Source: Dehalococcoidia bacterium (GTDB lineage: Bacteria; Chloroflexota; Dehalococcoidia; Plut-88900). Taken from it: a DNA stretch of 64,000 bases. A program made the translations under genes and the position numbers. The notes beneath the pieces are model-generated. The model was not told where the DNA came from and searched no databases. It saw only the letters and a program-made list of their open reading frames with translations. This document shows positions 9,396 through 64,000 of this stretch, in pieces (position 1 is the first letter of the stretch; every line of letters begins with the position of its first letter). The stretch covers positions 1,731,437 to 1,795,436 of the forward strand of contig OZ240221.1 of the NCBI GenBank assembly GCA_965197675.1, given 5' to 3'.

Positions 9396-10256
9396 ATGGC
9401 AGGTAGCCGGTTCAGCTTGAGGAGTAAGCCAGTGCCGAAAGTCATTTGGCCGACGCTAACGTTTTGCCTGCTGGCAGCCTTGCTCACAGGCGCGGCTTGC
9501 GCCGGTCACGATCAGGAGGTGAAATGGGGATACGATGGACCGGGCGCGCCGGAACGCTGGGCCTCGTTGTCTGAAGAGTACGCAACCTGCGCCGACGGCC
9601 AGCGGCAATCTCCAATCGACATTGCCGGATACGACCGGGGTGACGCCGCGCCCATTGCGCTCTCATACAGCGGCGACGCCGCTGCTGTCCGCAACGACGG
9701 CAGATTTGTGCACGTTGACTATGGACGCGGCAACACTCTGAGCGTGGGTCGGCGGACCTACGAGTTGAAGTCGGCTCACTTTCATTCGCCCTCGGAGCAT
9801 CTGATAGACGGCGCGAGCTTTGCGGCGGAGTTGCACCTGGTTCACGCGGACGCTGACGGAAACCTGGCGGTGGTGGGGCTGCTGTTCGGGCTGGGCGCAC
9901 CCGGTCCCGTGGCGCAGGAGATTCTCGACGCCGCCCCAGCTGCCGGCGATACCGTCATCGAAGGTTTTGCGCTCAGCGCCAGAGACTACGTGCCGGGCGA
10001 GTTGGGCTATTATCGGTACGACGGCTCAAAGACGACGCCTCCGTGCGACGAACCAGTTGACTGGTATGTGATGCGCCAGCCGGAAACCATCTCCCAAGAT
10101 CAGGTCGATAGCCTTCTGATGCTGAGCGGTGGTCCCAACAATCGTCCTGTGCAGCCCATAGGCGACCGAGCGATAACAACCCTGCGCCACGCCGAGAATG
10201 CCCCAGCCGGTCCCTGTTGCGTAAGATACAGTAACCAAGTGAGTAGGACAGCATGA
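9396..10256 (+). CDS. Alpha-class carbonic anhydrase, secreted (signal peptide).
   Basis: 286 aa. 'QSPIDI', 'HFHSPSEHLIDG' and 'AELHLVH' are zinc-binding histidine motifs of alpha-carbonic anhydrases. The N-terminus is hydrophobic. Confidence 0.85.
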   Translation: MAGSRFSLRSKPVPKVIWPTLTFCLLAALLTGAACAGHDQEVKWGYDGPGAPERWASLSEEYATCADGQRQSPIDIAGYDRGDAAPIALSYSGDAAAVRNDGRFVHVDYGRGNTLSVGRRTYELKSAHFHSPSEHLIDGASFAAELHLVHADADGNLAVVGLLFGLGAPGPVAQEILDAAPAAGDTVIEGFALSARDYVPGELGYYRYDGSKTTPPCDEPVDWYVMRQPETISQDQVDSLLMLSGGPNNRPVQPIGDRAITTLRHAENAPAGPCCVRYSNQVSRTA

Positions 10257-11673: not shown

Positions 11674-12049
11674 CTCTTTGTTTATAGCTCTGTTTATCTT
11701 CGTAACCGAATGGTTCGTACTACAATCATCCGTTATGATAAAATCCACCATGTTCCCGACTGAAATGAGCAGCAGGTAGAGATATAGTGAAAACGGCACT
11801 GCGCATTCGTTCGGCCCACGTGCTTCTGGCAGCGGCGGCCGCGGCTGGCGTCACCGCCGACTCTTCTTACCGGGGTCATCCTCGTGCTATCCTTAACTCC
11901 GGCGATAAAGACTGGTGTGAAGAGGCCGCCGTAGGGATATGCCCATTTCATTAAAGGTGTCGACTATGGGTTGGATATCCATGCCAACAGCCCTATATAC
12001 AATCTGGAGTCCATGCACTAAGTCTAAGTAAAACCCCAGGAGGTTTCCA

Positions 12050-13102
12050 GTGGTCAAAAGTGAGCTATCAGGAAAAATACAGACCGTGTTAGGACCAGTT
12101 GCCCCCGATGATCTGGGCATAACTCTCACCCATGAGCATCTGCTGATAGATCTCAGCACGGTGTTGATTGAGCCTCAGGGAGCCAGCGAAATCGAGCTAT
12201 CCAGGCAGCCGGTCTCCTTAGAGAACCTTTCCTGGATCATCTATCACTCCGAGAGCAACATCGACAACATGATTCTGAGCGACGAAACAACCATAATCGA
12301 GGAAGCTCTCAGATACAAAAAGTACGGCGGTAGAACGATAGTAGACGCTACTAGCATTGGTATCAGAAGGGATCCATCGGGACTCGCCCGCATAGCTCGA
12401 GCCACTGATCTGAACGTAATTATGGGCGCCGGATACTACATTCACGACTGCCACCCACCTGACATGGATGGTAAAAGCGAAGATGAGATAGTGGAGGAGA
12501 TCGTCAAAGATGTTACCCAGGGGGTGGGCGATACCGGGATCAAATCGGGGATCATTGGCGAGGTTGGATGTTCTTGGCCCATGCCCAATAACGAGGTGAA
12601 GTCGTTGAGAGCAGCCTCTAGAGCACAGGCAATTACTGGGGCCCCTCTTCTCATCCACCCTGGTGTGGACCCTTCCGCTCCCAAGCGGGCCATAGAGATA
12701 GTCCTGGAGGCGGGGGGCGATCCCAAGCGTGCCGTTATGAGTCACCTGGATCGCACCATCTTCGACTTCGAGACCTTGGACAGGCTGGCTGCGACCGGTT
12801 GCTACCTGGAATACGACCTCTTCGGGAATGAGAAGGCTCTATACCCCCTGGGCCCCATCGACCTGCCCAACGACGCCCGTCGCCTGGACTTTGTGTTTCA
12901 TCTTCGAGACCAGGGGAGGCTGGACCAGGTGCTGATGGCTCAGGATGTCTGCACAAAGATCCAACTGACCAGGTATGGGGGGCCCGGCTACTCGCACATT
13001 CTGGAGCACGTGGTGCCAATAATGAAGAGGAGAGGACTGTCCCAGGATGAGATTGACCACGTGCTGATCGACAACCCCAAACGGGCTCTGGCTTTCACAT
13101 AA
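12050..13102 (+). CDS. Phosphotriesterase family protein (PTE-like lactonase or aryldialkylphosphatase-related).
   Basis: 350 aa. 'GITLTHEHLLIDLS' near the N-terminus is the PTE-family metal-binding motif. The rest is a TIM-barrel amidohydrolase-superfamily pattern. Confidence 0.75.
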   Translation: MVKSELSGKIQTVLGPVAPDDLGITLTHEHLLIDLSTVLIEPQGASEIELSRQPVSLENLSWIIYHSESNIDNMILSDETTIIEEALRYKKYGGRTIVDATSIGIRRDPSGLARIARATDLNVIMGAGYYIHDCHPPDMDGKSEDEIVEEIVKDVTQGVGDTGIKSGIIGEVGCSWPMPNNEVKSLRAASRAQAITGAPLLIHPGVDPSAPKRAIEIVLEAGGDPKRAVMSHLDRTIFDFETLDRLAATGCYLEYDLFGNEKALYPLGPIDLPNDARRLDFVFHLRDQGRLDQVLMAQDVCTKIQLTRYGGPGYSHILEHVVPIMKRRGLSQDEIDHVLIDNPKRALAFT

Positions 13103-22756: not shown

Positions 22757-22843
22757 GAACTCACCTCTCTCAACTGGTTCCAAAGTCTAAGCCCTGCTAG
22801 TCTACTATCGATGTCAAGGTGCCGCAACCCTTCCGCCCCGTTG

Positions 22844-23143
22844 TTGTGCCACGTGGCCATATATAAGATGAGAACCTACGTGCTATAATGCAAATACTCA
22901 TCTCGCTTACAAGGAGGTATCACCGTCATTTCTCACAGAGGTCTTCGCCCGGGTGCAGGCGCTCCCAAGGGCAGCCTGAACGGACTGAAGCAGGGCCGGA
23001 ACGCTCGCCGGTTTCGAGAGCTTGTCAACGCCCTTGCTGAAACCAAATGCCCCGGCCCCTTCTCCCTCGGTAGATGAGGTGTCCCTGCTCACCTAGTTCC
23101 CTTCGGTAAACTCAGGATAAACTCTAAGCTCACCATGAGTGGG
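22844..23143. ncRNA. Copy 1 of a ~300-nt conserved non-coding element (candidate structured small RNA or miniature mobile element). Strand undetermined.
   Basis: It shares a conserved 5' block 'GTTGTGCCACG..GC.ATATATA.RATGAGAACCT.CGT.CTATAATGCAAATACTCATCTCGCTTACAAGGAGGTATCACC' and a 3' block 'GGTTCCCTTCGGTAAACTCAGGATAAACTCTAAGCTCACCATGAG' with copies at 31623 and 32107. The interior diverges in a patchy island pattern and is not protein-conserving. Confidence 0.45.
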
Positions 23144-23274
23144 GGAGGAAAAGAAACATCCGCTCACTCTGAGCCTGTCGAAGAGTCACCCTGAGCTTAA
23201 AGTTTACCCTGAGCGTAATCGAAGGGAAGGGTGCCCTCACCCCCTATACCGTCATTCCAAGCCCCCCTCTTTTC

Positions 23275-28484: not shown

Positions 28485-28566
28485 GTCCGATGATGTTTGG
28501 TCATCAATTGAGATGATGTTATCATATCGGCTGAAGACAGACCTGGCTGGTATAGGGGGACAACCT

Positions 28567-29712
28567 ATGAAGTGGGTGGATGTGGACGGGCATGTATTGG
28601 AGCCTTCAGACCTCTGGTTAAACAACCTGGAAGCACCATACAAGAGCAGGGCCATGCACTTTGTGAAAGACGAGAAGGGCTTGGAAAACTGGAGCATAGA
28701 TGGACAGATACATGGGAAGCTGACCGATTCCACATCGGCGAACCTCGCGACCATCGGCAAGAGTATGGAGTGGAGGAGAGAGAATATCTTCGATAAGCAC
28801 TTGGTGAGCTGGGAAGATGGACGTGCTATGAACCCTCCCGCCTGTGACTCGTACCATCGCATCAAGATGATGGATGAAGAGGGAATAGACGTATCTTTCC
28901 TGTTTCCTTCCTTGGGGCTCTCATGGATGAGCCGAGTAAGTGATCCAGGGCTGGCGGCTGCTTATTGCAGGGTCTATAACGACTGGATAGTTGAGTTTTG
29001 CCAACCCTATCCCGACCGGCTTTTCCCCTGTCTGCTGCTTCCGCTGATTGACATAGAGGAGTGCATCAATGAGTTGAAGCGCACCTCCAATGTCTCTCCC
29101 AAGACCGTGATGTTCCCCAACTCTCCTCCTCAGAATAAGGCTTACGGTAATCGACACTGGTATCCGCTGTGGGCCGAGTTCCAGGAACAAGGTATTCCCG
29201 TTAGCCTTCACCCGGCCTCGGGGGGAAAGAGCGCTACGACAATACACTATCCGGAGCTGCAGAGGCCAAGTTGGTGGACTTTCACCGCCAATGGCCTGGA
29301 TAGCCCGTTGGGTTTCCTGAGCTTCTTTCAAGAGGCGGCCTTCGATCATTTTCCGGATCTGAAACTGCTGATCATGGAGACGGGCTGTGCCTGGATGCCC
29401 TGGCTGCTTCACAGAATGGATGAGAAACACGAAATCCTGGGGTTCACCACTCCTATGAAACTCAAGCCCAGCGAGTATTTCTACCGTCAATGCTGGATAT
29501 CTATGGACCCTGATGATGAGTTGGGCTCGGCTGCCATCAAGCTGCTGGGGGCTGACAAAGTCATATGGGCCTATGATTACCCTCATTCTGACTCCCCCTT
29601 GGAGCCGGTGAAGAGTCTTAAGAGAGCCCTCGCTGAGCTACCCGATGATGACCAGAGGAAGGTGGCCGGCGAAAACGCCATGAACATCTATAATCTGACG
29701 CTGGGCGACTAA
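28567..29712 (+). CDS. Amidohydrolase-2 family protein (ACMSD/LigW-like metal-dependent hydrolase or decarboxylase).
   Basis: 'MKWVDVDGHVLEPSDLW' is the start pattern shared with the four other amidohydrolase-2 paralogs in the window (M.xxDxDxHxxEP..LW). It ends with a 'DYPHSD' metal motif. Confidence 0.75.
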   Translation: MKWVDVDGHVLEPSDLWLNNLEAPYKSRAMHFVKDEKGLENWSIDGQIHGKLTDSTSANLATIGKSMEWRRENIFDKHLVSWEDGRAMNPPACDSYHRIKMMDEEGIDVSFLFPSLGLSWMSRVSDPGLAAAYCRVYNDWIVEFCQPYPDRLFPCLLLPLIDIEECINELKRTSNVSPKTVMFPNSPPQNKAYGNRHWYPLWAEFQEQGIPVSLHPASGGKSATTIHYPELQRPSWWTFTANGLDSPLGFLSFFQEAAFDHFPDLKLLIMETGCAWMPWLLHRMDEKHEILGFTTPMKLKPSEYFYRQCWISMDPDDELGSAAIKLLGADKVIWAYDYPHSDSPLEPVKSLKRALAELPDDDQRKVAGENAMNIYNLTLGD

Positions 29713-29732
29713 GAAATTAGAGAGGAACATTC

Positions 29733-30371
29733 ATGGATCCAGTTAAGGTACAGGTCTTCTCTGACTACACTTGACCCTGGTGCTATATCGGCCTGGTGAG
29801 GATCGAACAGCTACAAAAGGACTATGCAGTGGATGTGGAATGGAAGGCTTTTTTGCTCAACCCTGGCATCCCTGTGGAGGGCATTCCCAACCAACACAAG
29901 GAAGGTGAGGGCGACGAGCTAACAGGTCACCTGAAGCAAGCGGCGGAAGAAGCGGGATTGATGGATATGAAGGAGCAGGCCATAACCCCCAACTCCAACT
30001 CCTGCTTCGAGGCATCTGAGTATGCCAAGGACAAAGGCAAGTTCGATGAATACCACAAGGCTGCGTTCAAGGCATACTGGGAGAAAAGCGAGAATATAGG
30101 CGTACCGGAAGTTCAAAAAAGGATTTTCGAGGTGTGCAACCTGGACTGGGAGGATTTCAGTTCTCCAGACAGTAACGGACAGTACGCCAAGCGTGTCGAG
30201 GCCCAGCTAATGGAGGCCAACACGTATGGCCTGAGAGCCGTTCCTGCGTTTATACTGGACAGGTACCTATTGCAGGGAGCCCAGCCTTACGAAGTGTTTC
30301 AACAGGCCATGAACTTAATCCAAAAGGAAAGAGAGTCCAAAAGTGGGCTGTGGATACCTGGTGAAGATTAA
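29733..30371 (+). CDS. DsbA/FrnE-family thiol-disulfide oxidoreductase with an in-frame TGA at codon 14 (29772-29774), where the first Cys of the CPWC active site should be. It is either a candidate selenocysteine (UPWC) protein or a nonsense-disrupted gene.
   Basis: The ATG at 29733 has an RBS 'AGAGGA'. Translation gives 'MDPVKVQVFSDYT*PWCYIGLVRIEQL...', matching the FrnE/DsbA N-terminus '..SD..CPWCYIG'. The listed ORF (GTG 29796) is the same frame downstream of the TGA. Confidence 0.55.
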
Positions 30372-30399
30372 GAAGCCCTTTTGATGGGGGATCAACTCG

Positions 30400-30789
30400 A
30401 TGGATGATCAGGAACAAGACTATAAGAGAAGGCTAACGTCGGAGCAGTACCACGTAACCCGGGAGAAGGGTACTGAGTCACCCTTCTCCGGAGAATACTG
30501 GGCTGCCAAGGACGCGGGCATCTACCGATGCGTTTGCTGCGATACGCCCCTCTTCCCCTCCAAGACCAAGTACGATTCGGGTACGGGTTGGCCCAGCTTT
30601 TGGGAGCCCGTCGACGAGGGTAAAATCCATTCGGAACTCGACGAGTCGCATGGGATGGTGAGAACTGAGGTGATATGCGCTGAGTGTGATGCCCATCTGG
30701 GTCATGTCTTCCCAGACGGGCCTCCTCCAACTGGGTTGAGATATTGCCTCAATTCGGCGGCTTTGCGTCTGGATACTGAAGAAGAGTAG
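30400..30789 (+). CDS. msrB: Peptide-methionine (R)-S-oxide reductase MsrB.
   Basis: 129 aa. It has two CxxC zinc knuckles ('CVCCDTPLF', '[12 protein letters not shown]') and the catalytic 'RYCLNSAAL' motif of MsrB (SelR domain). Confidence 0.9.
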
Positions 30790-30792
30790 GGT

Positions 30793-31278
30793 CTAGCTCG
30801 ATTCCCAGGTCTTCCAGTCTATCTCCCTGCCCGGGTAGGCAACGCTCTTGAACGGCCACTCCTTGCTTATCCAATCCTTGACTGTACTAAACAGCTTTCC
30901 ATCTAGGCCTGTATTGGCCTCGCTTTTCCGCACCCACATGTAAATAGTCGCGTCATTCTCAGGTTTGACGGGCGGGTATATGTACACACAGCCATAGTAT
31001 TTGCTCTCGTCAAGGCTTGTTACTTTGTAGACGAAGGACGTTTTAGTCTGGAACTCCTTGTTGTGCCACCCCAGGTCGATCATGTCTTGCTCGATACTCA
31101 GATCCTCGCTGGGCCACTCAGTGTGAGACCCGAAGACGCTCGTTAGGTTCTCTCTGCTTGACATAACAGCGTCATAGTCTTTGAATGTATCGTGAATAGT
31201 GAGCATGCTTAGTCGGAAGCCATCTCCCTGCAGGGATTCCGGGACCTCGAAGTCGTCGGGGACAAGGGTACTAGGCAT
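30793..31278 (-). CDS. Hypothetical protein, possibly a GNAT-fold N-acetyltransferase.
   Basis: 161 aa. The assignment rests on pattern resemblance ('GCVYIYP' and a beta-rich core) and is weak. Confidence 0.3.
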   Translation of the reverse strand: MPSTLVPDDFEVPESLQGDGFRLSMLTIHDTFKDYDAVMSSRENLTSVFGSHTEWPSEDLSIEQDMIDLGWHNKEFQTKTSFVYKVTSLDESKYYGCVYIYPPVKPENDATIYMWVRKSEANTGLDGKLFSTVKDWISKEWPFKSVAYPGREIDWKTWESS

Positions 31279-31622
31279 GTAGGATTCTACCTCTTGTTAC
31301 ATACAACCAGTATTGATCTGCGAACGTTCGTGTTGAACGGATAGGAGTGTATGAAGTTCTATCATCTGTGTCAAGAACGCGAGTACAGAGGACGAGTGCA
31401 AGCGCATTTTAGCCGAACCCCCACCCCGCCTGTCTGGACGCCCGGCGAAAGCCGGAAAAACGACTGACCGCGTCTCCCCCCCGAGCCTAAAGTTTACCCT
31501 GAGCGTAGTCGAAGGGAAGGGTGTTCCCCCTCACCCCCCCATGCCGTCATTCCACTGCCACCCCCTCTCCCCACCCGTCATTCTCGTGCTTGACACGGGA
31601 ATCCAGGGCTGGAACCTAGCCT

Positions 31623-31922
31623 GTTGTGCCACGCAGCTATATATAGAATGAGAACCTGCGTACTATAATGCAAATACTCATCTCGCTTACAAGGAGGTAT
31701 CACCCCTATTTCTCACGGAGGTCGTCGCCTAAGAGCAGAGGCTCCCAAGGGCAACCCGAACGGTCTGAAGCGTGGGCAAAACTCTCCCCGGATCCAAGAA
31801 CTTGTCAACACCCTCGCTGAAAACAAATTCCCGGCTCCTTTTCCATCGGAGGATGAAGTATCTCCGCTCACATGGTTCCCTTCGGTAAACTCAGGATAAA
31901 CTCTAAGCTCACCATGAGCGGA
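31623..31922. ncRNA. Copy 2 of the ~300-nt conserved non-coding element.
   Basis: Same conserved 5' and 3' blocks as copy 1. It forms part of a 484-bp tandem duplication. Confidence 0.45.
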
Positions 31923-32106
31923 GGTGTGTCGTATATCCCGCTCACTCTGAGCCTGTCGAAGAGTCACCCTGAGCGTAGTCGAAGGGAAGGGTGACCTCAT
32001 CCCCCATGCCGCCTGCCTGCTGCAGGCAGGTCATTCCACTGCCACCCCCTCTCCCCACCCGTCATTCTCGTGCTCGACACGGGAATCCAGGGCTGGAACC
32101 TAGCCT

Positions 32107-32405
32107 GTTGTGCCACGCAGCTATATATAGAATGAGAACCTGCGTGCTATAATGCAAATACTCATCTCGCTTACAGGGAGGTATCACCCCTATTTCTCAC
32201 GGAGGTCGTCGCCTAAGAGCAGAGGCTCCCAAGGGCAACCCGAACGGTCTGAAGCGTGGGCAAAACTCTCCCCGGATCCAAGAGCTTGTCAACACCCTCG
32301 CTGAAAACAAATTCCCGGCTCCTTTTCCCTCGGAGGATGAAGTATCTCCACTCACATGGTTCCCTTCGGTAAACTCAGGATAAACTCTAAGCTCACCATG
32401 AGCGG
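32107..32405. ncRNA. Copy 3 of the ~300-nt conserved non-coding element.
   Basis: It is about 97% identical to copy 2 and lies exactly 484 bp downstream of it. Confidence 0.45.
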
Positions 32406-33038
32406 AGGTGTGTCGTATATCCCGCTCACTCTGAGCCTGTCGTAGAGTCACCCTGAGCTTAAAGTTTACCCTGAGCGTAGTCGAAGGGAAGGGTGCTCTA
32501 GTTCTCTATGCCGCCTGCCTGCTGCAGGCAGGTCATTCCCGTGCTTGACACGGGAATCCAAGGGAGGGGTGTTGCACGAGGTGGATGTGCCCCCAGACCC
32601 CGAAACCTACCTGGGCAGGCGGGTCCAACCCCAAGCTGACGAAAAACTCAATCAAAATATAACGGGTCTTCGTGCCTGGAAAACCCCTAAAACAAAACTT
32701 TTTTTACAACTCAATCAAGTTTGAACGGGGACCAGAAAATTCAATCAACTTTCAAAGCTAAACAGAAAAGACAATCAAGTTGCCATACCCAAGCTCAGTC
32801 GGGATATGATGCAAGGCAATCGCATTTCGGCCAAAACCAGCTATGGCGGAACTCCCACCCCGCCTGTATGGACGCCGGCGAAAGCCGGAAAAACGACTGG
32901 CGGTGCACCCCCTATCTCAACATGCGATTGCCCTGTAGAGAGGACGAGTCTGGCCCTGGCTTGACACAGTACAATACGAAATGTAGGATGCTGATTGACT
33001 TTTGGGATTCCATCACAGGGAGGATATAAAAAGTTGAT

Positions 33039-34109
33039 ATGAAATTTGGCTTGATGTATGAAATCCAGATCCCGAAGGAAGTCTACCATCCGGGCATGGT
33101 GCGGGACCGCTACAAGCAGGTTCTGGCCCAAGTTTCCCTAGCAGATGAAGTAGGCTTCGACTACTTTTGGACTGTGGAACATCACTTCCTAAACGAGTAC
33201 TCCTATTGCTCGGCCCCTGAGGTTCTCTATGGTGCTGTTTCACAAGTTACAAACAAGATACGCATCGGCCACGCCGTAGCCTTACTCCCAGGGCAGTACA
33301 ACCATCCGATACGGGTTGCAGAACGGGCGGCAGTGCTGGATATATTGAGTGACGGCCGTATGGACCTGGGCACAGGCAGGTCATCCACAGTCATCGAAAT
33401 GGATGGTTTTCAGGTCAATCCGGAAGAGACCAGGGACCAGTGGGCAGAGGCCCTATCGATGATTCCAAGGATGTGGACAGAGGACCCCTTCTCCCACGAA
33501 GGGCATTTCTATCAGATTCCACCTCGCTCAGTTATTCCCAAGCCCGTGCAGGACCCTCATCCGCCTCTCTGGACGGCCTGCAGCCAGCCAGCCAGCTTTA
33601 AGATAGCCGGGGAGAAGGGCATAGGTGCTCTGTGCTTCAATCTCGATGGCATCGACGCTATAGCCGAGCGAGTGGCTGTCTATAAAGAGGCCGTCAAGAG
33701 TGCCAACCCTGTGGGTAAATTCGTTAACAACCAGATTGCTGCCATGTGCGTGACCTACTGCGGTGAAGACGAGGAAGAGGCTGTAAATGTGGCCGGCCCT
33801 CAAGGCGAGTGGTTCTTCAACAAGGCCGCGGAGACCTATTTCGGATGGCAGAGCAGGGCCGTGCCCGACTCTTATAAATTCGAACTATCGACTGCAACGG
33901 ATTCATACGCCTCAACCCTCGATGACCACCTCAACTCCGGAGCTTTCGCTATAGGAAACCCCGACTCTGTCATTAAAACCCTCAAGAAATATGACGAGGC
34001 AGGCGTAGACCAGATCCTATGCTTCGTACAGCCCGGCAATCTGGCGCATTCAAAGATCATGGACTCGATAAAGCTGTTCGGACGTCACGTAATTCCCTAC
34101 TTCCAATAG
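33039..34109 (+). CDS. LLM-class flavin-dependent oxidoreductase, first of a tandem pair.
   Basis: 356 aa. It has 'GFDYFWTVEHHFLNEYSYCSAPEVLYGAVSQ'. It is about 75% identical to the next gene. Confidence 0.8.
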   Translation: MKFGLMYEIQIPKEVYHPGMVRDRYKQVLAQVSLADEVGFDYFWTVEHHFLNEYSYCSAPEVLYGAVSQVTNKIRIGHAVALLPGQYNHPIRVAERAAVLDILSDGRMDLGTGRSSTVIEMDGFQVNPEETRDQWAEALSMIPRMWTEDPFSHEGHFYQIPPRSVIPKPVQDPHPPLWTACSQPASFKIAGEKGIGALCFNLDGIDAIAERVAVYKEAVKSANPVGKFVNNQIAAMCVTYCGEDEEEAVNVAGPQGEWFFNKAAETYFGWQSRAVPDSYKFELSTATDSYASTLDDHLNSGAFAIGNPDSVIKTLKKYDEAGVDQILCFVQPGNLAHSKIMDSIKLFGRHVIPYFQ

Positions 34110-39097: not shown

Positions 39098-40237
39098 TTA
39101 GTTGAGCGGAAGACCGTATAGGTTAGCCGCATTCTCGCCTAGGACCTTACGCCTCGCCTCTTCTGTCAACGGACTGAGGGTCTCCGTTAGCTCCTGCAGT
39201 GCTCCCGACTCGGCCTCAATGTGAGGGTAGTCGGAGCTCCACATACAACGATCTTCTCCTATGTACTTTATCGTGTTGGGAACCGTGGTTTCGTCGGCCT
39301 CCATCGCCACCCATACTTGCCTCTTCAGATACTCACTTGGGAGGAGTTTCATAGGTGATGTGAACCCTACCTTATCATAAATGCCGTCCATCCGCTCCAT
39401 GTACCAGGGAAGCCACCCAGAGCCGATTTCCAGGACGGCTATTTTCAGGTTTGGGAAGCGGTCGAAGACGCGGCCCTGCAGCAGGCTTACTAGGCTAAAT
39501 AGAACGTCTCCTACGTTGGTTACAGTCAGCCACCAGAAGGAGAACTCGGCGGTTCTGGGGTACAGGTTGCCTGGCGCCACCCCTACGTTGCTCGAAACGT
39601 GAAGGCTTACAGGGATTCCCGCATCTGAAGCTTCGGCCCAGAAGGGGTCGTAGTAAGGATCTCCGTAGGGTGTTCCCCTCTGCGCCGTGTTGTGGACGTA
39701 CAAGCCTTTTGCGCCCAGGTTAACCGCCCTTTTTAGCTCCTTGATGCTTTCCTGTACATCTAGCATGGGGATGTGCCCGATGGGGATGAGCCTATCAGGA
39801 TATGGTTTGCAAAAATCTAGCACCCAGTTGTTATAGGCTCGACACATGGCCGCTTCAAGCTTGGGATCGTCGCAATCCTCTGGCCAGTCCAAACCTATGG
39901 AGGGGTAGAGCAGCACCGCATCCACACCTTCAGTATCCAGCAGCTTTATTCGATCATGAGGGTCTGCGGCGGGCCGGTTGAGCTGTCGGGCCTCTTCATA
40001 AGGGATCTCGCCGGGGCTTAATATCTTCTTCGGGTCCTGACCTGCTCCGGCGATGTTGGCTAACACTCCTCCTCTGTCTTGTTTGCACATCTTGCCATCC
40101 AACTCTACATATTCATAGCCGCGCTCGTCCAGCTTGATATGTAGACCTCTTTCTCGGTACTCGGACTCGAGATAGGTCTCCCATAGGTCGGGGGGCTCCA
40201 AGATGTGGGCGTCGCTATCTATAATCTTAGGAGACAT
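39098..40237 (-). CDS. Amidohydrolase-2 family protein. Start reassigned to 'MSPKIIDSDAHILEP'.
   Basis: It has the N-terminal pattern 'IIDSDAHILEPPDLW' shared with its paralogs, and an RBS 'AGGAGGAA' upstream of the ATG at 40237. The listed longer ORF adds 21 non-conserved residues. Confidence 0.7.
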   Translation of the reverse strand: MSPKIIDSDAHILEPPDLWETYLESEYRERGLHIKLDERGYEYVELDGKMCKQDRGGVLANIAGAGQDPKKILSPGEIPYEEARQLNRPAADPHDRIKLLDTEGVDAVLLYPSIGLDWPEDCDDPKLEAAMCRAYNNWVLDFCKPYPDRLIPIGHIPMLDVQESIKELKRAVNLGAKGLYVHNTAQRGTPYGDPYYDPFWAEASDAGIPVSLHVSSNVGVAPGNLYPRTAEFSFWWLTVTNVGDVLFSLVSLLQGRVFDRFPNLKIAVLEIGSGWLPWYMERMDGIYDKVGFTSPMKLLPSEYLKRQVWVAMEADETTVPNTIKYIGEDRCMWSSDYPHIEAESGALQELTETLSPLTEEARRKVLGENAANLYGLPLN

Positions 40238-45283: not shown

Positions 45284-46402
45284 TTAAAGAGACAGCCCAT
45301 ACAGCGCTGCGGCATTCCCTCCGGCTATCTTCCGAGCTTCATCCTCTGGGATGTCCTTCATCATGTCCTCAACTGCTTGACGAGAGCGAGGAAAAGTTCC
45401 CTCATCATGGGGGTAGTCGCTGCCCCACATCAACCCGTCCACCCCTGTTATGTCTCGATTTCTCAGCCCTACAGGATCTATGCTGAAGGTGGCGTATCCT
45501 TGGCGCTTGAAGTATTCGCTGGGGAGCATGTCCAGCTTTTTAGTATGCCACATATGCCTTTTTTCGTAGTATTCGTCCATGAGGATAAGGTACCAGGCTA
45601 TCCACCCTATGCCTGCTTCGGCCAATACGAACTTTAGGCTGGGGTGGCGCTGCAGCACCCCGGATGCAGTCAAGTTCACTAATGTGCTGCGAGCTTCCGA
45701 TATGGTCATGGCCATGTAGATAAGGTCCGTTCCCTGGGGATCTGCTTCTCCAAGGTCATCGATGATCTCGTTTTCACCGACGGTCATGGAGTGGAAGGAG
45801 AGTATAAGGTCCGCATCTTCGACAGCAGACCATAAAGGCTCGTAGTCGGGTCGGTTGTAGGGAAGAGATGGCATACTCACGGGAATGTTTATGGTGCGAA
45901 AGCCCAGTTTAGCTGCTCGCTTGACCTCCTCGATAGCCGCTCTGATATCGACTACTGGTGCCGTGGCAGCAGGCACGAAACGGTCGAGATTGTCCTTGAA
46001 TAGTTCGGTATACAAGTCGTTGTAGAGGCGACAAAACGCCATCTGATATCCAGGATCGGGTGATGCGAAGATGCGAAATATCTCGTTGGAGTAGACCACC
46101 TCGGCACTGACCCCATCTTCGTCTTGGTCGGTCAGTCTCGCTTGAATATCGGTAAAGGCTTCATCTCCTCCCTGGGCCTTCACCTGTCCACCTCGAAACT
46201 CTCTGCGTTTGTCCTCATCGGTCAATAGCTTAGCTGTCAGGTCAACCCGAATGGGCTTTTGCCCTTCGTTGACGAGGTAGTGTCCGCCGTTTATGGTCTC
46301 GATTCGAGGCGCCCTATCACGATACTCGGGTGACAGCCGGTGGTATATCTTAGACGGGTCCTCTGCGTGAGAGTCGGCGGAAATCAACTTGTAATCAGGC
46401 AC
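45284..46402 (-). CDS. Amidohydrolase-2 family protein.
   Basis: 372 aa. 'KLISADSHAEDP' at the N-terminus and 'SDYPHDEG' at the C-terminus. Confidence 0.75.
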   Translation of the reverse strand: MPDYKLISADSHAEDPSKIYHRLSPEYRDRAPRIETINGGHYLVNEGQKPIRVDLTAKLLTDEDKRREFRGGQVKAQGGDEAFTDIQARLTDQDEDGVSAEVVYSNEIFRIFASPDPGYQMAFCRLYNDLYTELFKDNLDRFVPAATAPVVDIRAAIEEVKRAAKLGFRTINIPVSMPSLPYNRPDYEPLWSAVEDADLILSFHSMTVGENEIIDDLGEADPQGTDLIYMAMTISEARSTLVNLTASGVLQRHPSLKFVLAEAGIGWIAWYLILMDEYYEKRHMWHTKKLDMLPSEYFKRQGYATFSIDPVGLRNRDITGVDGLMWGSDYPHDEGTFPRSRQAVEDMMKDIPEDEARKIAGGNAAALYGLSL

Positions 46403-47130: not shown

Positions 47131-48291
47131 CTAGTTAAGGTTGTAGACTTCCAGGGCGTTTTCTCCCAAGATCTTACGCTGATCAGCCTCTGATAGAGAT
47201 TCTATAGCCTCCTTCACCCTGCCAACGATGCCAGGGAAGCCATCGGCATGAGGGAAATCGGTGGCCCAGAAGAACTTGTGGGCGCCTACTTCCTTTATCA
47301 CGTGGGAGATCAGTGTCTCGTCGGGTTCCAGGGATATCCAGCACTGCCTTTCGAAATACTCACTGGGCTTGAGGTCGAAGGGGCAGGTATATTTGCCTGT
47401 TTCCCACCTATCGTTCATGCGCTCCAACCAGAAGATAATCCACGTAGCCCCTGTCTCCAGGAACACCACCTTCAACTCAGGGAAACGGTCGAAGGCTCCT
47501 CGATTGATCATGTTCAACAAGGCCATTTGCAGTGGGAATGGGTCGATCGTAAGGCTATACCAGAAATCCTGGTGAAGGAACTGGGTAAGTCCATTGGTGT
47601 CCCCGAAATCATCATTGCCTGGGTAATCGTGATGGCTGGTGGGATGGATGCTCAATGGTAGTCCAGTCTCTTGGATTTCCGCATATAGTGGATCGTAGTA
47701 TTTGCTACCGTAGAGGTTGCCACTTAGGGGCACCGCGCAGATCATGAATCCCTTTGCCCCCATCTTGGCTACCCTTTTGGCCTCCTTCACTGCCTCGTTT
47801 ACGTCCCTGGTCGGCAAGTGGGCTATGGGGATGAGACGCTCGGGATCGGTCTTGCAAAAGTCGATGAGCCAGTCATTGTACGCTCGACAGTAGGCCCCAG
47901 CGACCTTTGGGTCCTCGCACCCATCTTCCCAAAAGAGGCCAGCGGTTGGGTAGAAGAGGGATTTCCCCACCTTCTCCTCGTTCATCCACTTCAGCCTGGC
48001 CTCAGGTTCGTTAGAGGCCGGAATCATACCGTCGTAGTAGTGCATCTTGCCGGGGTCGAAGAACTGGCTTTGGTCTTCCACGCCGAATGCCTTGCCTGCA
48101 TCCAATCCTAGCCCAGCCCCACCATGTACGATCTCTGAGGTCTTTCCATCTATCTCCAGATACTCCAACCCTTTGTCGTCGAGCAGAAACTGCATGGGCC
48201 GGTCTTTATACTCCGGATCCAAGTATTCGTCCATCATTAGCTTGACAGGCTCCGCTACGTGTCCATCGACATCAACCGTTCTATATTCCAC
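47131..48291 (-). CDS. Amidohydrolase-2 family protein.
   Basis: 386 aa. 'MEYRTVDVDGHVAEP' at the N-terminus and 'ATDFPHADG' at the C-terminus. Confidence 0.75.
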   Translation of the reverse strand: MEYRTVDVDGHVAEPVKLMMDEYLDPEYKDRPMQFLLDDKGLEYLEIDGKTSEIVHGGAGLGLDAGKAFGVEDQSQFFDPGKMHYYDGMIPASNEPEARLKWMNEEKVGKSLFYPTAGLFWEDGCEDPKVAGAYCRAYNDWLIDFCKTDPERLIPIAHLPTRDVNEAVKEAKRVAKMGAKGFMICAVPLSGNLYGSKYYDPLYAEIQETGLPLSIHPTSHHDYPGNDDFGDTNGLTQFLHQDFWYSLTIDPFPLQMALLNMINRGAFDRFPELKVVFLETGATWIIFWLERMNDRWETGKYTCPFDLKPSEYFERQCWISLEPDETLISHVIKEVGAHKFFWATDFPHADGFPGIVGRVKEAIESLSEADQRKILGENALEVYNLN

Positions 48292-48412
48292 TCGTCCCCT
48301 CCTTTGCTTGTCGGGAATATGGTAGAGAGCTAGCCTAACTATCTTATTCCCCCTCGGTTATTTGTCAACTTTGTGATATTCTGCAAACCATTTATTGTTT
48401 GAGGTGAATGTG

Positions 48413-63571: not shown

Positions 63572-64000
63572 ATGTCGAAGAACGGCTTCAAGGTTATGGA
63601 CTCGGATATGCACGTTATGGAGCCTATAGACCTGTGGGACCGTTACATGAAGCCTAAATTCAGAGATCGTGCACCCAGGCCTACCTACAGCTACTTCTTA
63701 GACCAGCGGATGGAGCATGAAGGGAAGGTCATCTCTCGTTCTCAGGTCAGCTTCGATAACTATAGCGTACTGCCTACCGAGATGATGACCGACCGTTACG
63801 GTAACCTGGACCAGCTCAAGAAGCACCAAGAGCGCGGATGGGGACCGGACGTACAGCTGGAAGCTATGGATGCCGAGGGTGTGGATGTGGCGATTCTGTT
63901 TCCAGGACTTGCACTAAGCGCACTTGGTAAAGAATACGACGACGATGATCTGGCCGCAGATGTCGCCAGGGCTTATAACGATTGGATGGCCGACTTCTGT
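63572..64000 (+). CDS. Amidohydrolase-2 family protein, 5' partial (it runs off the window).
   Basis: 'MSKNGFKVMDSDMHVMEPIDLW...' matches the N-terminal pattern of the other four amidohydrolase-2 paralogs. Confidence 0.7.
   Translation, partial: MSKNGFKVMDSDMHVMEPIDLWDRYMKPKFRDRAPRPTYSYFLDQRMEHEGKVISRSQVSFDNYSVLPTEMMTDRYGNLDQLKKHQERGWGPDVQLEAMDAEGVDVAILFPGLALSALGKEYDDDDLAADVARAYNDWMADFC

Follow-up and report, generated by a model that had tools for sequence, protein, structure and literature searches.

A probable FrnE-type DsbA-like selenoprotein with an in-frame TGA at its active site, and a covarying SECIS-like hairpin downstream, in a Dehalococcoidia bacterium

When a TGA codon interrupts a gene at an active-site position, it has to be decided whether the gene is broken, whether it ends there, or whether the codon is translated. 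This question is raised by a forward-strand frame in the window, by which we mean the whole stretch of 64,000 nucleotides that was analysed. The frame runs from an ATG at 29733 to 30371 and comprises 212 codons; on translation, its lone internal stop is a TGA at 29772-29774 (codon 14), and it ends with TAA at 30369-30371. The context of codon 14 reads MDPVKVQVFSDYT-TGA-PWCYIG. A preliminary description of this DNA had placed the TGA at the catalytic CPWC cysteine of a gene that starts at ATG 29733 behind a ribosome binding site, and translation together with alignment to FrnE (PDB 5CNW) confirms this. It had also proposed a UxxC selenoprotein, a reading that is supported by the conservation of the TGA, by purifying selection on both of its flanks and by a covarying hairpin at a fixed distance. 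On the sequence evidence, 29733-30371 very probably encodes a 212-residue cytoplasmic thiol-disulfide oxidoreductase that belongs to the DsbA family, FrnE branch, with selenocysteine (Sec) in place of the first active-site cysteine (U14-P-W-C17). The gene and its landmarks are as follows.

29733-30371, forward strand: probable FrnE-type DsbA-like selenoprotein gene with Sec at codon 14 (translation, Pfam DSBA, match to FrnE 5CNW)
29720-29726, forward strand: Shine-Dalgarno-like GAGAGGA, six bases before ATG 29733 (read from the sequence)
29772-29774, forward strand: UGA for a probable selenocysteine (U14), which would be the nucleophile of the UPWC redox motif (aligned codon in relatives, FrnE alignment)
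29781-29783, forward strand: Cys17 (TGC), resolving cysteine of the UxxC motif (TGC or TGT in 85 of 85 TGA loci)
30243-30245, forward strand: Pro171 in an AVPAF motif (invariant in clade alignment A1)

The identity of the protein is best judged with a cysteine substituted at codon 14. In this form it matches the Pfam DSBA domain (PF01323) over residues 6-193 with 100 bits (cut-off 25.6; E = 1.9e-28), and the best match among solved structures is FrnE of Deinococcus radiodurans (PDB 5CNW; E = 1.5e-14, residues 3-200). FrnE SDIACPWCYIG and SDYT[TGA]PWCYIG align without gaps, and the FrnE residue opposite the TGA is Cys22 (numbering of PMC8945050). Pro171 would be the cis-proline of the thioredoxin fold, as expected from the fold family. 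The ATG at 29733 lies 13 codons upstream of the active site; the N-terminus starts with MDPVKVQVF, enters strand beta-1 at residue 4 and has no signal peptide or hydrophobic leader that can be read from the sequence. UPWC is a CP(W/F)C-type site in a cytoplasmic-type DsbA-like domain without signal peptide, which is the combination found in the FrnE subfamily (cd03024). A search of NCBIfam gave no specific model above its cut-off for the window protein. One candidate from this search, the Rcas_1661 family of thioredoxin-like (seleno)lipoproteins (NF041057), was rejected, as it scored 35.8 bits where 190 are required and matched in the C-terminal half only.

Two characterised proteins are useful for comparison. 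D. radiodurans FrnE (DR_0659), a cytoplasmic disulfide reductase and isomerase assigned to cd03024, shares the SD..CPWCYIG context and likewise lacks a signal peptide, but has Cys22 where the window has Sec, and overall sequence similarity is low. Its active site is regenerated by a C-terminal CxxxxC tail (PMC8945050); the window protein has no such C-terminal CxxxxC, has no Cys at all within its last 70 residues, and ends with ...KERESKSGLWIPGED. Many FrnE proteins carry this motif, but those of S. roseofulvus and D. maricopensis are also without the tail (PMC8945050), so that CxxxxC is not strictly defining. Classical periplasmic DsbA, as in Escherichia coli, shares with the window protein a thioredoxin fold into which a helical domain is inserted, a motif of the CxxC type and the Pfam DSBA domain, but it carries CPHC and a signal peptide, where the window has UPWC and no signal peptide. 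A classical periplasmic DsbA is ruled out by the missing N-terminal signal peptide, and by analogy the window protein is expected to act as a cytoplasmic reductase/isomerase rather than as a DsbB-coupled oxidase.

Conservation of the codon was assessed in 121 sources, that is, the window and 120 loci obtained via species-representative genomes, metagenomes (clade alignment A1) and exact protein look-up, where the metagenome relatives are the best 80 matches. The motif [DE][YF]x[stop/C]PxC is present in 119 of them; the other two end at contig ends. At the aligned codon these 119 sources have TGA in 85 cases, TGC in 26, TGT in 8, and TAA or TAG in none. The 85 TGA loci represent 78 distinct segments of 78 nt with 36-99% protein identity to the window, and TGA is found without exception in homologues above about 36% identity if their contig includes the N-terminus. 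TGC and TGT occur only in 34 distant homologues (at most 33% identity), which belong to Gemmatimonadota and Longimicrobiales apart from one Dehalococcoidia homologue. The TGA aligns with the first CxxC cysteine of these cysteine forms, so the two make a Sec/Cys pair. The nearest named relatives are Chloroflexota metagenome-assembled genomes (MAGs), and the TGA forms include Chloroflexota and Anaerolineales MAGs at 61% and 39% identity. An independently assembled strain that is 98.5% identical (L037) retains the TGA as well.

The TGA forms are not uniform, and split into several subclades with differing flanking residues. One separate large subclade (L065-L120), from JGI and other metagenome contigs, reads FSDYV-TGA-PWCYIDSVRVEQLE (e.g. 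L065, 2933-2980) and has a perfect 7-bp hairpin, UCGACUC-GGUC(C/A)-GAGUCGA; it makes up more than half of the best 80 metagenome matches. In another pair of loci the segment before the TGA differs, with TDQPIPVIFWYDYI in L040 (72-116) and MADPVKVQVFSDYI in L039 (9800-9844), though the protein downstream (P0019) is identical. This points to recombination in the N-terminal segment, or to a short contig that is chimeric there.

If the codon is read by the Sec machinery of bacteria, a SECIS element is expected shortly after it. The preliminary description had found no convincing hairpin by eye; here a SECIS-like hairpin with family-wide covariation was located, which had been overlooked because it is weak in the window sequence. 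In the window it takes the following form.

29788-29806, forward strand: core SECIS-like hairpin of 7 bp, UCGGCCU / GGUG loop / AGG(A)UCGA, with A29802 bulged (RNAfold)
29776-29820, forward strand: extended stem-loop around the core hairpin, nt 5-49 counted from the U of UGA (predicted fold, -10.7 kcal/mol)

According to RNAfold the core hairpin has only -5.8 kcal/mol, and its loop begins 20 nt after the UGA. Folding of 29772-29840 alone gives -12.6 kcal/mol with z = +0.97, which is no better than shuffled sequence, and a single-sequence result as unimpressive as this made a comparative analysis necessary. Counted from the U of UGA, nt 17-23 form pairs with nt 29-35 across the family; they enclose a loop of 5 nt, nearly always with GG at its start (UCGACUC-GGUCC-GAGUCGA and UCGGCCU-GGAGC-GGGUCGA are examples). 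Of the 78 distinct TGA sequences, 63 form all seven pairs and 76 at least six, while the cysteine homologues (n = 34) have 2-6 pairs in this register and never 7. In alignment A2, which holds 68 distinct sequences, 96.2% of the cells are paired, against at most 52% when the partners are slid by 1-3 columns. Compensatory changes are seen at three of the seven pairs (A-U/G-C, C-G/U-A and U-A/C-G; 35 cells), and none of 500 shuffles matches the observed values. It is worth noting that the covariation concerns the seven core pairs, and that the extended stem-loop at 29776-29820 is the predicted fold of the window sequence. The window itself deviates from its family: in the consensus register, GGC...AGG ATC at 29792/29802 would leave a C-A mismatch, and because of this the hairpin is predicted to adopt a shifted register there, with a GGUG loop and one bulged A. 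The consensus pair is retained in relatives that have GGT...ATC or GGC...GTC.

Published criteria for bacterial SECIS elements (bSECIS; PMC13188914) are a loop of 3-9 nt, a stem of 4-16 bp, a G in the first two loop positions, a distance of 16-37 nt from the UGA and a minimum free energy of -7.5 kcal/mol or lower. The region after the TGA in the window falls within all of these ranges (loop GGUG, 7 bp, spacing 20 nt, -10.7 kcal/mol), as do 72 of the 78 TGA sequences, but the criteria are permissive, and 23 of the 34 cysteine controls pass as well. As the sole discriminator they are insufficient, and were rejected for this use. What tells Sec and Cys homologues apart is the fixed spacing together with the covariation, and not the generic criteria; the spacing is 19-21 nt in 71 of the 72 TGA sequences that pass. 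A search against Rfam gave no SECIS or tRNA-Sec family, either in the whole window at gathering thresholds or in 29600-33100 at E up to 1. The SECIS of the E. coli fdhF type and the bSECIS consensus are similar to the window hairpin in that the hairpin lies in the coding region directly after the UGA; the consensus has an apical loop starting with G-G or G-U, and the spacing of 20 nt and the stem of 7 bp in the window are within its ranges. The fdhF-type element has no sequence similarity to the window hairpin. By analogy with these elements, the window hairpin would be bound by SelB.

In summary of the observations, a UGA is conserved throughout a deep clade, its flanks are translated, and a covarying hairpin follows 19-21 nt downstream. 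These data show recoding and a SECIS-like element without telling which amino acid is inserted, and this counts for the alternative that survives best, namely that the UGA is recoded to cysteine, either by a SelB-dependent non-canonical tRNA(Cys) or by misinsertion of Cys under limiting selenium. Such tRNAs reportedly occur in some bacteria, in work said to be that of Mukai et al. in 2016 and Vargas-Rodriguez et al. in 2018. In the same direction points the fact that Sec-synthesis genes were not seen in the window and the 120 loci, although such an absence is to be expected with so little of each genome sampled. A tblastn search with E. coli SelA, SelB and SelD (NC_000913.3) gave no match in this set of about 1.03 Mb, and with ARAGORN neither the window nor 60 loci yielded a tRNA-Sec (64 kb of genome, with short flanks elsewhere). 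A second selenoprotein gene was not recognised in the 64 kb either: there are 92 candidates for open reading frames split by a TGA, and none of the ten that were inspected by eye is credible, since they either run on past an ordinary stop or lie opposite a real gene. However, systems that recode UGA to cysteine are rare, and Sec advantage is the simplest account of the long retention of both UGA and SECIS across a deep clade. DsbA-like UxxC proteins are moreover a recognised Sec family, and Chloroflexota, including Dehalococcoidia, are documented users of Sec with large selenoproteomes (PMC13326102). In BSepDB, two marine Dehalococcoidia MAGs with 46-49 selenoprotein genes are among the ten richest bacteria (PMC13326102). 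Recoding to cysteine is accordingly given a small probability, and selenocysteine remains the preferred reading of codon 14.

The next alternative takes the UGA as a true stop. The frame would then consist of a 13-residue leader and a separate, truncated DsbA-domain protein that starts at a GTG at 29796 or at 29829. Both GTG codons are in frame, and starts of this kind are what public gene calls use. Among 5.8 billion proteins searched, 68 homologues were retrieved, and the 23 closest of them (P0001-P0023; 38-99% identity) are entered as products of 138-188 aa that start at an internal Met or Val downstream of the CxxC position, while the distant homologues (at most 33% identity, cysteine forms) are full length. 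The products P0001-P0023 are unnamed in their sources. The closest, P0001, is 99% identical to the window protein and begins with MDVEWKAF, which in the window corresponds to the following start.

29829-29831, forward strand: false start GTG (Val33), giving a 180-aa product without the active site (public gene callers)

Such a truncated product would be missing both strand beta-1 and the entire UxxC/CxxC active site by which the fold is defined. Nor are the downstream starts conserved, as the range of 138-188 aa in the called products shows, and the model leaves no role for a hairpin that covaries and keeps its distance from the UGA. The most direct argument comes from the codons around the TGA, for which pN/pS was calculated across the TGA clade by the method of Nei and Gojobori. 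It is 0.32 (pS 0.59) in the eight codons upstream of the TGA, 0.40 at codons +1 to +8 and 0.42 at codons +9 to +30. The columns for Ser, Asp, Tyr, Pro and Cys each show several synonymous codons, so the eight codons that precede the TGA, and the PWC that follows, are conserved as protein and not merely as nucleotides. An upstream start is present in frame in 83 of the 85 TGA loci, and the in-frame ATG, where present, usually lies 12-22 codons before the TGA. Judged from this substitution pattern, both flanks of the TGA are translated in one frame, and purifying selection on both of them effectively rules out a translation start downstream of the TGA. We regard termination at the UGA as very improbable, and Sec insertion within one continuous protein again accounts for the data.

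Purifying selection on both flanks in the same way rules out a pseudogene, which the preliminary description had named as a real alternative. Under this explanation a Cys-type FrnE gene would have suffered a nonsense change from TGC or TGT to TGA, or the TGA would be a sequencing error. A single transition or transversion would suffice, the hairpin of the window is weak, and gene callers do read the TGA as a stop. Against this, 78 distinct sequences, with identities as low as 36%, have TGA at the aligned codon and none has TAA or TAG, the TGA is kept in the independent assembly of the 98.5%-identical L037, and no close relative carries TGC or TGT. The explanation is effectively excluded, with a probability that we consider minimal. 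A genome-wide reassignment of UGA to Trp or Gly (codes 4 or 25) has nothing in its favour beyond the in-frame TGA and is negligible, since homologues have Cys and not Trp or Gly at the aligned position and since TGA serves as an ordinary stop elsewhere in the window, as had been noted before: it terminates 11 of the 40 open reading frames with 250 aa or more, among them the carbonic anhydrase gene at 9396-10256 (PF00194, 9.6e-32), beyond which the frame continues into junk.

A DsbA-like protein with UxxC is not a new selenoprotein family, because such proteins (COG2761/PF01323) were described in 2005 and 2008. The first report, from the Sargasso Sea, presented nine sequences of DsbA-like UXXC selenoproteins belonging to COG2761, with a predicted SECIS (PMC1088965). 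In the later GOS survey the family appears as 'DsbA 1' (pfam01323, UxxC), with 63 sequences and 704 Cys homologues, and is enriched in marine samples (PMC2398784). DsbA-like selenoproteins have also been found in sequenced bacteria (PMC1794560), and a 2026 review uses the name 'DsbA-like protein form 1' (PMC13188914). This family and the window protein have in common PF01323, Sec in place of the first CxxC cysteine, widespread Cys homologues, and a small SECIS hairpin with a G in the apical loop just after the UGA; nothing essential differs. The shared domain, motif and COG would thus place the window protein in this family, of which NIP15863.1 and AACY01178397 are published representatives.

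From the established bacterial Sec pathway a mechanism can be proposed. The hairpin would act as a bacterial SECIS that recruits SelB-GTP-Sec-tRNA(Sec) to the ribosome, and the UGA at codon 14 would then be read as Sec and not as a stop. In the finished protein, going by FrnE biochemistry and the chemistry of CxxC and UxxC motifs, the selenolate of U14 would attack substrate disulfides or oxidised thiols, and C17 would resolve the reaction by forming a selenenylsulfide with U14. This selenenylsulfide could be re-reduced by a cellular reductant, e.g. the thioredoxin system. The likely role, again following FrnE and CxxC chemistry, would be that of a cytoplasmic disulfide reductase/isomerase in the defence against oxidative stress.

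The two neighbouring genes in the window are on the same strand and very close.

28513-29712, forward strand: Amidohydro_2 gene (Pfam, 9.3e-29), with its stop 20 bases before ATG 29733
30400-30789, forward strand: msrB (SelR PF01641, 6.5e-53; TIGR00357, 2.6e-57), 28 bases downstream

No promoter-like or terminator-like site was seen between the amidohydrolase gene, the Sec-FrnE-like gene and msrB. Given the common strand, the gaps of 20 and 28 bases and this continuity, the Sec-FrnE-like gene is probably co-transcribed with msrB in the window species. There, and only there, the Sec-FrnE protein might conceivably, though with low probability, be a dedicated reductant of the co-transcribed MsrB. 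The preliminary description had spoken of a redox pair; msrB does lie directly downstream, at the coordinates given above, but among the TGA loci the adjacency is limited to the window and L037, so that the pair is a local arrangement and not a conserved module. The TGA genes in L038 and L039, for instance, have unrelated neighbours, and msrB as a conserved partner was rejected, since it is not adjacent in any other TGA locus.

The main value of these results lies in annotation, and general knowledge of selenoproteins is unchanged by them. Re-annotation of the truncated entries as selenoproteins of 200-215 aa would fix dozens of database entries, and would add to the number of selenoproteins counted in marine Chloroflexota-like genomes. 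With its 78 sequences, the alignment presents a clean, small bacterial SECIS with covariation, and could serve as a family-specific model. It also illustrates a more practical point: generic bSECIS criteria separate Sec and Cys homologues poorly, and positional conservation does so well.

Some further features of the surroundings deserve mention. Downstream of msrB, an open reading frame of 161 aa on the reverse strand (30793-31278) converges on it, and 3 bases separate the two stop codons; the frame is conserved in L037 and has no Pfam match. Between this frame and the first luciferase-like monooxygenase gene sits an intergenic unit of about 484 nt in two tandem copies (31546-32029 and 32030-32458) that are 98% identical. 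A third copy, 83% identical, is found 9 kb away at 22842-23196. The unit carries REP-like palindromes, e.g. ATTCCCGTGCTTGACACGGGAAT, and matches no Rfam family. At the orthologous site L037 has a single copy (11819-12284) where the window has two, which means that the copy number of this unit differs between strains. The 64 kb also contain five Amidohydro_2 paralogues that are 26-40% identical to one another (28513-29709, 39104-40228, 45287-46390, 47134-48297 and 63590-64000), along with several genes for luciferase-like monooxygenases and hydantoinases. Such paralogue expansion is known from marine Chloroflexota of the SAR202 type.
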